Shown piece by piece: positions 16,210 through 61,953 of a stretch of 64,000 nt of DNA. A program made the translations under genes and the position numbers. Location: positions 768-64,767 of the forward strand of contig PXRX01000001.1 of the NCBI GenBank assembly GCA_003023195.1. The letters are read 5' to 3'. This stretch comes from Halobacteriales archaeon QS_8_69_26 (lineage in GTDB: Archaea > Halobacteriota > Halobacteria > Halobacteriales > SW-7-71-33). The notes below the pieces were generated by a model that saw only the letters and a program-made list of their open reading frames with translations, was not told the origin of the DNA and ran no database searches. How positions within the stretch are numbered: the first letter of the stretch is position 1; every line of letters begins with the position of its first letter.

Positions 16210-16244
16210 CTTCCTGCGGCTCGCGGATTGCTCGCCGCAGGAAG
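16210..16244 (-). other. Perfect 11-bp stem hairpin directly abutting the tRNA-Val 3' end
   Basis: CTTCCTGCGGC (16210-16220) pairs with GCCGCAGGAAG (16234-16244) around a 13-nt loop. It starts at the first nucleotide after the tRNA discriminator base. Function (trailer processing or termination) is unknown. Confidence 0.6.
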
Positions 16245-16319
16245 TGGGTCCGGGCGGATTCGAACCACCGATCTCGGCCTTGTAAAGGCCGCGTCATACC
16301 CAGGCTAGACCACGGACCC
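16245..16319 (-). tRNA. tRNA-Val (anticodon UAC)
   Basis: The reverse complement GGGUCCGUGGUCUAGCCUGGGUAUGACGCGGCCUUUACAAGGCCGAGAUCGGUGGUUCGAAUCCGCCCGGACCCA folds by hand into a cloverleaf. The acceptor stem is 7 bp (GGGUCCG/CGGACCC). The anticodon stem is CGGCC/GGCCG with loop UUUACAA. The T-arm is GGUGG-UUCGAAU-CCGCC. CCA is not encoded. Confidence 0.9.
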
Positions 16320-16339: not shown

Positions 16340-16356
16340 GAGGGGAATAATCCTTG
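16340..16356 (-). promoter_or_regulatory. Putative tRNA-Val promoter (TATA-like)
   Basis: The AT-rich element ggattatt (minus strand) lies about 27-34 nt upstream of the tRNA 5' end. Confidence 0.35.
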
Positions 16357-16434
16357 TCTTCTCGGGGCGCGTCTCCGAACCTGTCCGCGGCCGGTCGAGG
16401 GGATCCGTGCCGGAACACGCACCTCCCGCCCGAC

Positions 16435-16452
16435 TACAGTAATCTTACTGTA
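16435..16452. repeat. AT-rich palindromic element, copy 1 (TACAGTA-atct-TACTGTA)
   Basis: Perfect 7+7 inverted repeat with a 4-nt spacer. The same architecture occurs at 39093-39114 and 61889-61910. Confidence 0.8.
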
Positions 16453-16548
16453 AACTGGCGCGTCCCCCCGATCGAACCACGCCCGGTATTCGCCCCGCCA
16501 TCCGGGGTGTCCGGAACCCTTACCCGAACTGGTCCCCGACCGGGGCGC

Positions 16549-17049
16549 ATGGAGCGCGAGCGGATCCTGTCGGTGGCAGTCCTCGTCTTCCTCGTCGGGG
16601 CCGCCGGCCTCGTCGCCGTCCAGGCCGGCTACCTACCGAATCCGGCGGCCGACGCCCACGACCGGGCACGGGTGACCGTCGTCGACGAGGGCGGCGAGGA
16701 ACTGGCCGTCGTCGACGCCAGGGTCGCCGACACTCCCCGCGAGCGCCGGATCGGACTGGGCGAGACGGACTCCCTGGAGAACGGGTCGGGGATGCTGTTC
16801 GTCCTCGACGCGGAGGACGAACACGTCTTCGTCATGCGGAACATGGACTTCCCCATCGATATCGTCTACGCCGACGCCAACGGCACCATCACCCGGATCC
16901 ACCACGCCCGTGAACCACCGCCGGGGGTCGACGGGGAGTCACTGCGGTACCCGGGGTACGGGAAGTACGTCCTGGAGGTCCCCCGCGGCTACGCCAACGC
17001 GACCGGGATGGACGAGGGCGACCGGATAGAGATAGAGTACGCCGACTGA
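16549..17049 (+). CDS. DUF192 domain protein (secreted or membrane-anchored)
   Basis: Start re-picked at ATG 16549 (MERERILSVAVLVFLVGAAGLVAV...). An N-terminal hydrophobic anchor is followed by the DUF192-like core ..RERRIGLGETDSLENGSGMLFV...FVMRNMDFPIDIVYAD..G.I..I. Confidence 0.75.
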   Translation: MERERILSVAVLVFLVGAAGLVAVQAGYLPNPAADAHDRARVTVVDEGGEELAVVDARVADTPRERRIGLGETDSLENGSGMLFVLDAEDEHVFVMRNMDFPIDIVYADANGTITRIHHAREPPPGVDGESLRYPGYGKYVLEVPRGYANATGMDEGDRIEIEYAD

Positions 17050-39045: not shown

Positions 39046-39092
39046 GTTCGGACCTGCCGCACTGATCCGGTCGCCGTCCCGGACGCATCCTT

Positions 39093-39114
39093 TTTACAGT
39101 AGCTTTACTGTAAA
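39093..39114. repeat. AT-rich palindromic element, copy 2 (TTTACAGTA-gctt-TACTGTAAA)
   Basis: Perfect 9+9 inverted repeat with a 4-nt spacer, located between two convergent gene ends. Confidence 0.8.
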
Positions 39115-39152
39115 CAACGCCAGCACCGGCTGTCGGGCCGTCGCCGGTGCCG

Positions 39153-39533
39153 TCACTGGAACGTGCTCGGCTCGCTCTCCGGGGGTACCGACTCGAGTCC
39201 CTCCCTTACCGCAGTCTGTTGCATACGGCGCGCCATCGCCTCCATCTCGTCCACGAGTTCGTCCGCGCGCCGTTCGAGCGGCGTCGTGTCGAACGCGACG
39301 TCGACCAGCGGTTCGATCCCACCGCTGACGAGTCCGCTTGCCGTCCGCGGGTCCGGCCGGTACGGTTCGGACCGGACCACCAGCGCGACCGCCGGCACCT
39401 CGGTCCGGACGCAGGCGGACACCGGTGCGCCCGCGGGGCCGCCGATGGCCCCGACCCCGGGTTCCGGTTCGACGCCGGCCTCGCGGAGCTCCGACTCCAG
39501 CGCGTCGGTCGTCGCGACGGCGGTCCGCGCCAC
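39153..39533 (-). CDS. Hypothetical protein resembling only the C-terminal half of PAC2/proteasome-assembly-chaperone-like proteins
   Basis: This is the C-terminal part of the 296-aa track ORF, and the putative GTG start at 39533 is the only plausible start before gatB. The translation ..AIGGPAGAPVSACVRTEVPAVALVVRSEPYRPDPRTASGLVSGGIEPLVDVAFDTTPLERRADELVDEMEAMARRMQQ.. looks genuinely coding. The family call is from memory and weak. Confidence 0.4.
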   Translation of the reverse strand: MARTAVATTDALESELREAGVEPEPGVGAIGGPAGAPVSACVRTEVPAVALVVRSEPYRPDPRTASGLVSGGIEPLVDVAFDTTPLERRADELVDEMEAMARRMQQTAVREGLESVPPESEPSTFQ

Positions 39534-41233: not shown

Positions 41234-41884
41234 ATGTCACACCCGTCGCCCTCCAGCACCGAACGCCCCGAGCGGGCGGACGCCGAAAGCGCGCACGCCG
41301 AGGCTCCGGAGGAAGGGGAACTCCGGACCCTCTGGCTCGACAGCGACGACACGGGCGATCTCATCTCCTCGCTCTCCTCGGAGACCGCCCGGTCGATCCT
41401 GGTGCGCCTGCACGAGGACCCCGCGACCGCCTCCGAAATAGCGGAGAGCGTCGACACGTCCGTCCAGAACGTCCGCCACCACCTCGACAGCCTCCAGGAG
41501 GCCGGCCTCGTGGAGGTTACCGATATGCGCTACTCGTCGAAGGGGCGGGAGATGGACGTCTACGCGCCCGTCGACCAGCCCCTCGTGGTGCTCGTCGGGA
41601 GCGAGGACGACGGCTCCGGGTTCGTCGACTCGCTCAAGCGGTTCCTCGGCGCCATCGGTGTCCTGGCCGCGGCCAGCCTGCTGATCCAGTACCTGGTCGT
41701 GCTCCAGTTCAACGCCGGGAGCGCGCCGGGGATCCCGCGGGTCGGGGAGGGAGCGGGTGCCGGCGGCCTCGCGCCGCTCGGGATGCCGCCGGGACTGCTG
41801 TTCTTCGCGGGCGGGATGCTCGTCCTGGCGATGGCCTCCGCGTGGACCTACTGGCGGAACCGCCCGGACGCCACGCCCGCCTGA
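41234..41884 (+). CDS. ArsR-type winged-helix regulator with two C-terminal transmembrane helices
   Basis: 216 aa. The wHTH reads ETARSILVRLHEDPATASEIAESVDTSVQNVRHHLDSLQEAGLVEV. Two hydrophobic helices follow (AIGVLAAASLLIQYLVVL and LLFFAGGMLVLAMASAW). Confidence 0.75.
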   Translation: MSHPSPSSTERPERADAESAHAEAPEEGELRTLWLDSDDTGDLISSLSSETARSILVRLHEDPATASEIAESVDTSVQNVRHHLDSLQEAGLVEVTDMRYSSKGREMDVYAPVDQPLVVLVGSEDDGSGFVDSLKRFLGAIGVLAAASLLIQYLVVLQFNAGSAPGIPRVGEGAGAGGLAPLGMPPGLLFFAGGMLVLAMASAWTYWRNRPDATPA

Positions 41885-47810: not shown

Positions 47811-47941
47811 ACCGATCCCGGCCTGGAGAACTGCCCCGGGGATCGCGTGAACCGATCCCGGCCTGGAGAACTGCCCCGGGGATCGCGGGAACCGATCCCG
47901 GCCTGGAGAACTGCCCCGGGGATCGCGGGAACCGATCGCGG
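47811..47941. repeat. 40-bp tandem repeat (3 full copies plus a partial one), each unit able to form an imperfect hairpin
   Basis: The unit ACCGATCCCGGCCTGGAGAACTGCCCCGGGGATCGCG(T/G)GA occurs at 47811-47850, 47851-47890 and 47891-47930, with a partial copy at 47931-47941. Within a unit, CGATCCCGG can pair with CCGGGGATCG. The repeat lies between two convergent genes. Confidence 0.9.
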
Positions 47942-47968
47942 CTCGCAGGAAGGGTGGAGGGCGGCCGA

Positions 47969-55482: not shown

Positions 55483-55535
55483 CGGTCCCGGTCGCCGACG
55501 CCCTTCCGACTACGGATCGCGCACGTCACGCGCCT

Positions 55536-55552
55536 TCTTCCATTTATTTTTC
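55536..55552 (+). terminator. Oligo-T tract downstream of the giant glycoprotein gene
   Basis: cttcttccatttatttttc lies 55-70 nt after the stop codon. Archaeal intrinsic terminators are oligo-T runs. There is no experimental support here. Confidence 0.4.
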
Positions 55553-55997
55553 GGCCAGCGGCCGCACCGGCCTCCGGTCGTGAGTCCGACCGACGGCGTC
55601 CGAGGACGGTCCGTGCGACGGCCGGTCGGAGTGGCCCCGGACCGGCCACGGGGTACCTCTCGGGTCGGAAGACGTGATTCCAAACCAGCACATCCCGGTT
55701 TATACGTCCCGGTCGGTCAGGATACGGAGTGAAAAGCGCCGGGGCTCGCGTCCGGCCGACCGCCCGGCCTCGGCGAGCGACCGAACACCCAGAACCGCAC
55801 GGTGTAACCGGGATTTCGGTCCGTCGGGTGGATCGTGCGACCGTCGTGCGCACGGTCGAACTCGGGGAAGGAAGACGACACATTACACAAAGCATTTACC
55901 ATATGGTTTCGAGGATGGGAATGATGGTACCTGTCCCGATGTTTACCGTACCTTTCGCGGTAGCATCGAGGCAGGTGCCTACACGCAAAACAAAGCT

Positions 55998-58900
55998 ATG
56001 ACAGGGATACAGACAGACAAGCTACGTAGCGTATTCCTCGCTGCGCTGATGGTGTTGTCGGTTGCTGCTGTCGCCTCGCCGGCGGCGGCCCAGCCGATCG
56101 ATTCTGCCGACCGGACGGTTGACCAGACGGAGGTCAACGCCGGCGGCAGTACGACGGTAACACTGACGGTCGAAGTCGGGGAAGACGCAGACTCAATCTC
56201 GATCCAGGATTCGTTCGATCCTGAGTTCGCCGAGGTATCGAATCTGAACGTGGAGTTCCAGAACGGTGACGGCAGCACGGTGTTCACTAACGCGGAAAAC
56301 GGTAGTGTGACCGTCGCTGCGTCGGCCGACGCGGGCACGACTATCGTCGTGACCTACGACGTCACCGTGGTCGACGAGGCGCCCGCCACCCACACGATTT
56401 CCGGTGAGGTCGTCTCCGGTGACCAGACGGTGACGCCGACCGGCGACACCGAGGTTAACGTCGTCGAGCAGGTCGGCCCGTCGATCACGTTCGACGGCCA
56501 GACCAGCGCCGGCAGTAGCGTCAACGTCGCCAGCTACAACCTCGGCGACAATGGCTCGACCGTCGCCGTCTGGTCGACCGACGACGCGGGTAACCCCGAC
56601 GAGGTCCTGGGCTCGGTTAGCCCCTCCTCGTCGAGCGGTAGCCTGAACGTCGCGCTGAACCAGCAGATCAGCGGCACCCAGACCCTGGTCGCGGCCGTCC
56701 ACAGCGGCGACACTTCGACTGAAATCCTCGCCAGTGACACCGCCGAGGTGACCGTCGAGACTCCGCCCGGTGACGCGGAAGTCGTCGACGGCGGGACCTT
56801 CTTCGTCGGTCAGGTCCTCTACACGAACGCGTACGACACGGGCGACCAGGTCGTCCTCCGTGACGGCGACGGTACCTTCCAGAGTGACGTGCCCGTCGAA
56901 GACGGGACCGTCACGCTGCGTACCGCCAACCGTAACGAGGGCATCTTCCAGCTGACCAGCCCGACCGGTCCGACCATCGAGTTCGAACTGGTCGAGCAGG
57001 ACTACGACATCTCGCCGAGTGAGGTGGAGGTCACGAACGAGGGCGACGGTGCTGCCGCCGAGATCACCGTCGCGTCCAACCGCGGCACGTACACCCACGT
57101 GCTCTCCTCGGAGAGCCTCAGTGCCTCGGACCTCCAGAGCGTGCTGGGCACCGGTACGATCGGCCCCGAGGGCGAGACGCTCCTCGTCTCCGGGACTGTC
57201 GACCAGACGCTCGCCGCAGACTTCACCGGCGTCCCCGCCGGCGACTACCAGATCGACTTCGGCGTCACCGACACGACGGCCAGCGACACCGTCAACGTCT
57301 CCGTCGAGGCGGCCGCTCCCGGCCAGGTGACGTTCGACTCCGACACGAAGGTCATCCAGGAGCAGCTGGGCGACCGGGCGCGGATCCCGCTCAGCTTCCA
57401 GAACTCCGACACTGCCCAGCTCGAGCTCGGCAGTGACGACCTGCGCTGGCGCGTCTCGCTGACGGTCACCGACGCGGACGACGACGGCTCCGCGACGGTG
57501 CTCGTCAACACGGACAACATCCGCCAGACCGGGACCGTGTTCGCCGCCGCTGGCGACGACACGGTCTCGAACGTCGAGGTCCTGACGGGCGGGCAGTTCA
57601 CGAGCCCCGACCGCAGGATCGCCGCGACCGCCTACCCGATGAGCGTGTCCGTCAACGGTGACGAGACCGACGTCGCCACGCTCTCGCTGCAGGACCCGTC
57701 CCAGGTCGAGCGCTCGCTCAGCGTCTCGCGCGCCCGGGCCGGGCTCTCGTTCGAGGACGCGCTCGCCAACCAGGAGGAATCCAGCACCGTCGCATCGAGC
57801 GACTGGGTGGTCATGGAACTCCAGGCCGCGGGCATCTTCGGTTACATCGGTGAGGACGCCGCTGCGGACCTCGCCGCGGGCGAGGACGGCGTCTCGCTGA
57901 GCATCAGCGAGACCTCGCTCGATCGCAACGAGGAAGGCGACAGCGTCGACCCGTCGGTCTTCGTGACCAGCGTCGACGAGGCGAGCAACACGATCACGCT
58001 GGCCGCCAAGGTCAACGAGGCTAACGGCTTCGAGATCGGCGAGACCTACCGCGCCACCTTCCAGGTCGCGGAGGCCAACCCCTACGTCGACGCGGCGGTG
58101 ACGCGCTCGGTCCAGTTCACGACCGCGCCGCGTGCCGTCTCGATCGACTTCGCGGGCGACCGGCTCCGCGTCCAGCAGGCGGCCAGCCAGACCATCTCCG
58201 GTAGCACCACGATGGCGACCGGCACGCAGGTGACGGTCACCATCCGGTCGACCGGTGAGAGCGTCGAGGGCGGTCAGCCCTTCCTCCGCTCGAAGACCAC
58301 GACGGTCCAGAACGGTGCCTGGAGCGTCGACTTCGACTTCGGAGACATCCCGCCCGGCCAGACCTTCACCGTGGCCGTGCGGTCCGCGGGTGCCAGTGAC
58401 GACGCTGCGGGCGTCGTCACCCAGGCCGCCTCCGTCTCGATGAGCAGCCAGATCTCCCAGAACGGTCAGGTCCTGCTCGTGGACAGCGTCTTCCTGCCCA
58501 ACGCCGGGTTCGTGACCATCCACGACGAGACCCTCCAAGACGGTGAGACTCTGGGCAGCGTCCTGGGCACCTCGCGGTACCTGCCGCCGGGCTCCCACGA
58601 GGACGTCCGCGTGACCCTCGACGAACCGATCGAGGAGACGCAGAACGTCATCGCCATGGCCCACCAGGACACCAACGGTAACGCCGTCTACGACTTCGTC
58701 GACCAGGAAGGCGGCGCAGACGGGCCGTACACCCTGGGTGGCGAGGCCGTGACGGACGACGCCCAGGTCCAGATCCCGACGGAGGAGACGCCGACGGCCA
58801 CGCCGACGGCCACGCCGACCGACACCCCGACCGACACGCCGACGGCCACGCCGACGGCCACGCCGACCGAGACCCCGACCGAGACCCCGACCGAGACCCC

Positions 58901-61850: not shown

Positions 61851-61888
61851 GGGATCCGCCCGTACCGGGTCTTACCGGCCGTTCGACG

Positions 61889-61910
61889 TTTACGGTAGAA
61901 TTACTGTAAG
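61889..61910. repeat. AT-rich palindromic element, copy 3 (TTTACGGTA-gaat-TACTGTAAg)
   Basis: Same architecture as copies 1 and 2, with one mismatch in the left arm. It lies between the convergent artA and dphB ends. Confidence 0.75.
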
Positions 61911-61953
61911 CCGCGAGGACGAGATTCCTCCTTCCCACCGGATCGCACGCCCC

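Follow-up and report, generated by a model that had tools for sequence, protein, structure and literature searches.

Three A/T-rich palindromes of 18–22 bp, which recur between the genes of a window of 69.4% G+C, form a real and statistically solid sequence family, which is most likely to be either a repeat of the REP kind or a docking site for a protein. The window, i.e., the whole stretch of 64,000 nucleotides of DNA that was analyzed, comes from a contig of the uncultured MAG 'Halobacteriales archaeon QS_8_69_26' (ENA k119_90737, 65,958 bp). The reading that we prefer, to which we give a probability of roughly 35%, is that the three sites are members of a family of short extragenic palindromes, dispersed and restricted to one lineage, which resembles bacterial REP elements in kind. 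REPs are well studied in bacterial genomes, where they have their own domesticated transposases. In a GC-rich haloarchaeon, a family of AT-rich palindromes that is strictly conserved and confined to one lineage would qualify as a candidate analogue of REPs in archaea or, alternatively, would offer a way to a new DNA-binding protein with sequence specificity. The motif provides a clean, testable marker, the importance of which is potential, since the evidence comes from a single contig of an uncultured organism, with three sites on it.

Structure of the palindromes

The three copies, with the 4-nt spacers in lower case, are as follows.

16435–16454: copy 1, TACAGTA-atct-TACTGTAAA (together cgacTACAGTAatctTACTGTAAAc); perfect 7-bp inverted repeat arms
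39093–39114: copy 2, TTTACAGTA-gctt-TACTGTAAA (together ccttTTTACAGTAgcttTACTGTAAAc); perfect palindrome with 9-bp arms, equal to the consensus
61889–61909: copy 3, TTTACGGTA-gaat-TACTGTAA (together gacgTTTACGGTAgaatTACTGTAAg); one arm substitution, A to G

The core of copy 1 occupies 16435–16452 (TACAGTA-atct-TACTGTA); its right arm runs on to 16454 as TACTGTAAA, and its left arm lacks the outer TT (gAC). The consensus of the three palindromes is TTTAC-R-GTA-NNNT-TAC-T-GTAAA, and 41 of the 42 core arm positions are identical across the copies. The symmetry attributed to the element in the preliminary description is real, being perfect in the arms of copies 1 and 2 and interrupted by a single substitution in copy 3. 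This substitution keeps a G.U pair in + strand RNA and produces an A/C mismatch on the − strand. The spacer measures 4 nt in all three copies and differs in sequence each time (ATCT, GCTT, GAAT); since it always ends in T, the right-hand block common to all copies is TTACTGTAA. TACNGTA is its own reverse complement, and the element can also be read as two 7-bp palindromes with centers 11 bp apart, i.e., one helical turn. The central bases of the two heptads, however, are complementary rather than identical (A/T, A/T, G/T), which favors the inverted-repeat reading.

Each palindrome is the most AT-rich point of its spacer. As RNA, copy 1 folds into a stem of 7–8 bp with a 4-nt loop on either strand, and the + strand hairpin of copy 3 reaches −14.6 kcal/mol, whereas its − strand stem is interrupted. 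The stems outfold shuffled sequence in five of the six strand/copy combinations (z of −2.5 to −4.3). None of the loops AUCU, GCUU, and GAAU is known as a stable tetraloop. A T5 run (39091–39095) overlaps the left edge of copy 2, on the + strand immediately ahead of the stem; in the remaining five strand/copy combinations the T-runs are T2–T3. When the whole window was compared with Rfam at gathering thresholds, tRNA-Val was the sole match, and the palindromes matched no family.

Recurrence of the motif

A mismatch search of the window for TACNGTA-N4-TACNGTA, with up to 2 mismatches allowed and 100 shuffles as control, returned exactly three sites (16435, 39095, and 61891), in agreement with the sequence as read directly and with the three positions given in the preliminary description. 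The shuffles gave 0.20 matches on average, and none of the 100 reached three. The heptamer TACTGTA is confined, window-wide, to the three copies. A generic look-elsewhere test for the maximum recurrence of any 7-N4-7 palindrome was uninformative because codon-driven GC-rich arms (e.g., GTCGACG) dominate it; a composition-aware test was substituted. For sites with at most 1 mismatch, the latter gave a Poisson expectation of λ = 4.2e-4 and p = 1.2e-11, or p of about 2e-7 after Bonferroni correction over the 16,384 possible arms. This palindrome is the only outlier that is both AT-rich and purely intergenic, as patterns of comparable score are GC-rich, codon-driven, and located inside genes. The recurrence is thus confirmed as real and not due to chance, as had been supposed earlier without a calculation.

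The copies are centered at 16443, 39103, and 61899, so that the center-to-center distances are 22,660 and 22,796 bp. A spacing so even arose in 0.6% of random three-point trials, a post hoc figure, and three points cannot establish periodicity. The next positions expected at equal spacing lie beyond the contig.

Two other repeats in intergenic DNA of the window should be mentioned. Tandem units of 40 bp, about 3.3 in number (47812–47945; unit ccgatcccggcctggagaactgccccggggatcgcgggaa), each with a hairpin GGGATCG-N7-CGATCCC (47839, 47879, and 47919), occupy the convergent spacer between the PcrB gene and a gene for a small Tat/lipobox protein; they are unrelated to the AT-rich palindrome. Upstream of the S9 peptidase gene, a divergent spacer contains a perfect hairpin with a 9-bp stem, relatively AT-rich for the genome (36947–36972; CGAAGTATT-N8-AATACTTCG).

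Genomic context

The surroundings of the copies include the following features.

16244–16319, − strand: tRNA-Val(TAC), left neighbor of copy 1
About 16345–16367: conserved tRNA-Val promoter block
16368–16509: spacer segment of about 142 bp that surrounds copy 1, between the two conserved promoter blocks, not in four relatives
16511–16525: conserved DUF192 promoter-proximal block CCGGAACCCTTACCC
16549–17049, + strand: DUF192 gene, right neighbor of copy 1, ATG at 16549
39046–39152: convergent spacer of 107 bp with copy 2, between the stops of the S9 peptidase gene (39045, + strand) and the PAC2 ORF (39153, − strand)
61851–61953: convergent spacer of 103 bp with copy 3, between the stops of the archaeosortase gene (61850, + strand) and the diphthine synthase gene (61954, − strand)

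All three copies are intergenic, as the preliminary description maintained, and they lie near the middle of their spacers, with no gene end closer than 38 nt. The promoter-side placement given there (tRNA-Val/DUF192) is correct for copy 1 but does not extend to copies 2 and 3, which lie between convergent 3′ ends. Copy 1, in a divergent spacer, precedes tRNA-Val by 116 nt and the DUF192 ATG by 94 nt; it does not overlie the two conserved promoter blocks but lies about 60–80 bp upstream of both. Copies 2 and 3 are 38–47 nt from each stop codon. The flanking genes, i.e., those for tRNA-Val, DUF192, S9 peptidase, a PAC2 remnant, archaeosortase (Exosortase_EpsH family), and diphthine synthase, have no functional theme in common. 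The PAC2 ORF (39153–39500, − strand) matches PF09754 in its C-terminal part only (profile positions 137–214 of 215) and ends against the gatB upstream region, which gives it the appearance of a truncated gene remnant.

The window as a whole is ordinary core chromosome, with sucC, ABC transporters, SMC/ScpA, gatB, topoisomerase I, and PcrB, together with genes for S-layer-like proteins, archaeosortase, diphthine synthase, and Trm5. Pfam searches of the ORFs of the window, which amounts to about 2% of a typical haloarchaeal genome, revealed no transposase, Y1_Tnp, integrase, HUH nuclease, RAYT-like gene, or other mobile-element gene.

Comparison with relatives

No collection searched contained a close relative of this organism. 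The best non-self protein identities in these collections were 78% for diphthine synthase, 77% for DUF192, and 60% for S9 peptidase.

The loci of the copies can nevertheless be compared with those of more distant haloarchaea. Four relatives (L253–L256) share the tRNA-Val/DUF192 pair, with a spacer of 84–120 bp vs 229 bp here. Both promoter blocks are kept in the four relatives (the DUF192-proximal one as CCGGAAC-S-CTTACCC), and the extra ~142 bp of the present genome lie between them; no palindrome was found in the spacers of L253–L256. Halorarius, Halorientalis, and a metagenomic relative have the same gene order as the copy 3 locus, and in all three the archaeosortase and diphthine synthase stops are 0–3 bp apart, whereas 103 bp separate them here. 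At the copy 2 locus, the SMC/ScpA side and the topoisomerase I side adjoin gatB in many of 80 related metagenomic loci, and in none of the 80 do the S9 peptidase and the PAC2 fragment stand beside gatB. At other loci, the convergent neighbor of the S9 peptidase gene is a different one, 0–3 bp away. In the window, the S9 peptidase and the PAC2 fragment occupy ~36.9–39.6 kb, between the SMC/ScpA/DUF7518 block and gatB; by comparison of gene order, this segment is a lineage-specific rearrangement or insertion. A horizontal-transfer donor of this region was considered and rejected: the S9 homologues are ordinary haloarchaeal genes of 55–60% identity, with no palindrome beside them. In these comparisons, copies 1 and 3 lie in spacer DNA that the relatives lack, and copy 2 at a lineage-specific gene junction.

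Wider scans gave a similar picture. About 1.17 Mb of related haloarchaeal DNA (1.11 Mb + 58 kb) contained no copy at 0–1 mismatch, and its three matches at 2 mismatches correspond to the chance rate. Half-sites occur there at 0.5 per 64 kb vs 11 in the window. The only other half-site-like string in the window, TTTACNGTA at 55942, has no partner arm; it falls within a comparatively AT-rich non-coding stretch of 626 bp (55483–56108) upstream of a large DUF7827/DUF7282 surface-protein gene. The exact 18-base consensus has 45 matches in 185,579 species genomes, a collection that excludes this MAG (copy 2 itself was not returned), and none of the matches is haloarchaeal. The lack of copies in the related DNA, together with the lack of the consensus in any haloarchaeal representative genome, indicates that the motif is lineage-restricted. 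Conservation at orthologous positions, on which the preliminary description had made its proposal depend, is thus not observed, the tRNA-Val/DUF192 and archaeosortase/diphthine synthase spacers of the relatives being shorter, by roughly 110–145 bp and 100 bp, respectively, and free of the palindrome. Because the nearest relatives are only about 75–78% identical in protein, we take this as lineage restriction and not as absence of function.

The same scans yielded several look-alikes outside the haloarchaea. The Chitinophagaceae matches of the 18-base consensus fall within a conserved ORF. The sole GC-rich genome among the consensus-scan matches is that of Nonomuraea sp. (NZ_JBEXMT010000016.1, 73% G+C; L162:399–420), which has an exact TTTACAGTA-catt-TACTGTAAA, apparently intergenic and in a TTTAC-rich stretch. 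A scan of viral contigs for the 14-base pattern gave, among the matches listed, AT-rich phages, and the contigs with look-alikes had, again among the matches listed, 24–56% G+C throughout. About 30 viral contigs (about 39% G+C, mostly 4–8 kb; loci L011, L018, L021, L023, L082, L262, and L267 among them) share a conserved hairpin, CCCCTTTACGGTA-TAAA-TACTGTAAAGGGG, the arms of which are those of copy 3, the G.T position included; this stem-loop is probably one conserved within a family of small phages and unrelated to the archaeal element. Phage contigs of sample 3300045988 (e.g., L003, L006, and L010; about 36% G+C) carry 3–4 GTTAC[A/T]GTAAC boxes at 11-bp phasing. These arrays, which have both the heptad and the phasing of the archaeal element, look like operator or iteron arrays. 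A literature string search for the motif returned eukaryotic primers and constructs only.

Flanking sequences

Similarity among the copies stops at the core, as seen in a six-way MAFFT alignment that included both orientations. Anchored 59-nt flanks, likewise compared in both orientations, show an ungapped identity of 0.23–0.35; the best shifted identity is 0.36–0.44, which is chance level (null median 0.39, 95th percentile 0.47). These comparisons rule out a larger mobile element of the MITE, SMR, or PATE kind, the copies being unalike outside the core, and no terminal inverted repeats were found around them. Nor are there target-site duplications: the best direct-repeat scores between left and right flanks are 17–20 at the three copies, against a null median of 17 (p = 0.24–0.53). 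The GGGG..GTC.CCG.AACC repeats that appear by eye to bracket copy 1 are at chance level in local alignment. A GATCCG box located 40–47 nt from the center and common to the copies was likewise discarded, since 7% of random position triples have a hexamer in common at a similar offset and GATCCG occurs 148 times in the window.

The idea that the core sits within a longer element of about 95 nt, either an imperfect palindrome or a structured RNA, is unsupported, as a clear fold was obtained for copy 1 alone (z = −2.95 against shuffles, + strand; copy 3 gave −1.2 and +1.1) and Rfam has no match.

Origin and function

The family of dispersed extragenic palindromes that we favor, as the reading in line with everything observed, may be pictured as follows. 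The copies would have been spread by a copying process, because three independent mutational origins of 18–22 specified bases are unlikely. They would have survived only in gene-free spacers, leaving coding sequence and promoters unbroken. The location of copies 1 and 3 in DNA absent from the orthologous loci, with the promoter blocks at copy 1 intact, is what would be expected of an insertion tolerated where it is harmless. It should be noted that the extra spacer DNA (about 100–142 bp) is much longer than the 22-bp core and is not common to the copies, and thus a simple insertion of 22 bp would not be sufficient. Near-identity would be maintained by a symmetric protein reading the sequence as duplex DNA or as a hairpin; with the centers of the heptads one helical turn apart, both would be presented on the same side of the helix. 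We only infer this binding protein, its very existence as well as its identity. Where it lies between convergent genes, the element would in addition be transcribed into both 3′ UTRs as a hairpin of 7–9 bp, which could help to define or protect RNA 3′ ends.

The closest rival, which we consider rather unlikely, dispenses with mobility: a lineage-specific dimeric or tetrameric protein would bind the palindromes in gene-free spacers to mark or organize the chromosome, or to insulate transcription units, stopping read-through where genes converge and keeping divergent promoters apart. Recognition at the DNA level would cover all three positions, including copy 1, which is outside any 3′ UTR, and half-sites with centers 11 bp apart and a free spacer sequence are consistent with it, as is the location of each copy in mid-spacer, at least 38 nt from gene ends. 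Regulon operators are usually less strictly conserved than these sites, which also points to an architectural role. This rival alone would give meaning to the near-equal distances between the copies, although their evenness was noted post hoc and three points are too few to establish a period. In its boldest form, which is highly improbable in our opinion, the sites would be docking sites for a new haloarchaeal chromosome-organizing protein at intervals of ~22.7 kb, serving as loop anchors or domain-boundary markers; if true, this would be an archaeal counterpart of the bacterial positional codes of the matS/parS type, recently evolved in a single lineage. We know of no such architectural palindrome system in haloarchaea, and the lack of a haloarchaeal precedent counts against the rival, as does the lack of a candidate binder in the window, where the ArsR-type HTH gene (41234–41884) and SMC/ScpA (31.8–36.3 kb) are ordinary haloarchaeal genes. 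In favor of the roadblock variant, a downstream termination motif of Haloferax volcanii has been proposed to act through a roadblocking protein (PMC7237163). What the rival leaves unexplained is the threefold origin of identical 18–22 bp sites without copying.

Readings tied to the neighboring genes fare less well. A palindrome of fixed spacing with AT-rich arms in a GC-rich genome has the classic look of an operator, and copy 1 is suitably placed in the divergent tRNA-Val/DUF192 spacer. Ordinary operators, through which a homodimeric regulator would control the adjacent genes or unannotated small RNAs, are nonetheless improbable. Copies 2 and 3 are enclosed by convergent stop codons that leave no space for a gene, and copy 1 is well upstream of both promoter blocks; the sites are therefore not promoter-adjacent. 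They are also not conserved at orthologous promoters, as no related palindrome is present in the tRNA-Val/DUF192 spacer of the four relatives (60–77% amino-acid identity). Moreover, the genes concerned lack a functional theme, and regulon sites are usually degenerate, whereas these are near-perfect. A role of the palindromes as bidirectional RNA hairpins (7–9 bp stem, 4-nt loop), which would terminate or stabilize transcripts at convergent 3′ ends, agrees better with copies 2 and 3, since their distance from the stops is within the range of Haloferax volcanii 3′ UTRs (median 58–97 nt; PMC7237163). In that archaeon, hairpins lie upstream of 503 termination sites, and one that was tested gave 59% termination, so that hairpins can terminate transcription (PMC7237163). 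The excess stability of the stems, the G.U pairing preserved by the change in copy 3 on the + strand, and the T5 run abutting copy 2 are in line with such a role. Copy 1, however, is downstream of no gene; lying upstream of both neighboring promoters, it belongs to no plausible 3′ end, and therefore a purely RNA-level role cannot account for all three copies, which narrows the choice between a dimeric protein site and an RNA tetraloop hairpin offered in the preliminary description. Furthermore, terminator hairpins need structure only, whereas here the sequence itself is identical and shows no covariation; a T-run follows the stem on neither strand, the loops are not among the known stable ones, and the other convergent spacers of the window lack a comparable AT-rich hairpin. 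For these reasons, the RNA reading is quite unlikely. The most improbable proposal is a bidirectional promoter made of back-to-back TATA-like boxes, in which TTTACA on each strand would recruit TBP/TFB to produce sense tRNA-Val and DUF192 transcripts at copy 1 and antisense RNAs at copies 2 and 3. TTTACA is one mismatch away from TTTAWA, the haloarchaeal TATA consensus; the element is the AT-richest point of each spacer, and both genes flanking copy 1 are directed away from it. Yet conserved promoter-proximal blocks already lie much nearer to tRNA-Val and DUF192, no BRE-like purine-rich block is seen by eye upstream of either box, copies 2 and 3 could yield antisense RNAs only, and a promoter does not need a palindrome of fixed spacing.

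Comparison with known systems

Several well-defined classes of sites can be set aside. Core sites of the Xer/dif type occur once per replicon and have arms of about 11 bp and a spacer of 6–8 bp; a 4-bp spacer and the presence of three sites within 64 kb rule out a core site for Xer/dif or another tyrosine recombinase. A by-eye comparison with the boxes of LexA (CTGT-N8-ACAG), TyrR (TGTAAA-N6-TTTACA), NtcA (GTA-N8-TAC), TrmB (TACT-N3-AGTA), and Pyrococcus Phr showed that the order or the spacing of the half-sites differs in each case. The bacterial systems matS/MatP, parS/ParB, and NBS/Noc consist of conserved short palindromes read by dimeric proteins, the binders having been identified. Like the sites of these systems, the present ones are well-conserved short palindromes dispersed at a spacing of tens of kilobases and not tied to promoters; unlike them, they are intergenic only and lineage-restricted, whereas matS, parS, and NBS sites are often inside genes and conserved across related species.

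Copies 2 and 3 resemble the hairpin termination sites of Haloferax volcanii in placing a hairpin a few tens of nucleotides past the stops (PMC7237163). The Haloferax hairpins share structure, with a T-stretch (T5C) as the efficient signal (PMC7237163); here it is the sequence that is identical, no T-run follows, and copy 1 is downstream of no gene. In being small non-coding repeats of a haloarchaeon, the palindromes recall the MITEs, PATEs, and SMRs of Haloquadratum walsbyi, among which PATEs carry palindromes, as here, and SMR-A, of about 110 bp, has no target duplication and a mobilization mechanism that is unknown (PMC3119063); the extra spacer DNA described here, similar in size at about 100–142 bp, also lacks duplications. 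Canonical transposons and SMRs are commonly more than 95% identical within a type, and MITEs, SMRs, and PATEs are homologous over their full length (PMC3119063), whereas only the central core of 18–22 bp is common to the present copies. Neither the terminal inverted repeats of MITEs and SMRs nor the near-terminal palindromes of PATEs, which are related to IS605 ends (PMC3119063), are present here. With neither whole-length homology nor the characteristic ends, the palindromes do not belong to these classes.

The REP/REPIN elements of bacteria differ from the present family in several respects. The host here is archaeal, and neither a text search of the REP survey PMC3733652 nor the titles and abstracts from a literature search produced an archaeal REP. 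The element is AT-rich, whereas REPs are described in one review (PMC3184786) as small stem-loops rich in G-C bonding. A GTAG or CGTC tetranucleotide at one end marks most REP families, according to the survey (PMC3733652); the ends here are TTTAC.../...GTAAA, and GTAG is missing from copy 1 and only internal in copies 2 and 3, at the arm/loop junction. There is no paired (REPIN/BIME) arrangement, and the element is far shorter than the extra spacer DNA around it. A cognate single-copy RAYT (Y1 HUH transposase), typically flanked by REPs, accompanies REP/REPIN elements; none was seen among the ORFs of this window, which amounts to about 2% of a typical haloarchaeal genome. REPs usually number over 100 copies genome-wide; the one 66-kb contig covered here has three, a density of 3 per 64 kb. 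Lacking the end tag, and seen on this single contig, the element cannot be filed as a REP but only resembles one. The resemblance is nevertheless broad. REPs are short (20–40 bp), imperfect, and repeated extragenic palindromes, and the window holds three of 18–22 bp, all intergenic. According to the survey (PMC3733652), REPs have near-identical stems and variable loops and are strictly extragenic, species- or lineage-specific, and surrounded by non-homologous flanks, all of which applies here. They are found mainly between unidirectional and convergent ORFs, as are two of our three copies between convergent ones, and their G.T stem pairs, of which copy 3 has an example, are taken as a sign of transcription (PMC3733652).
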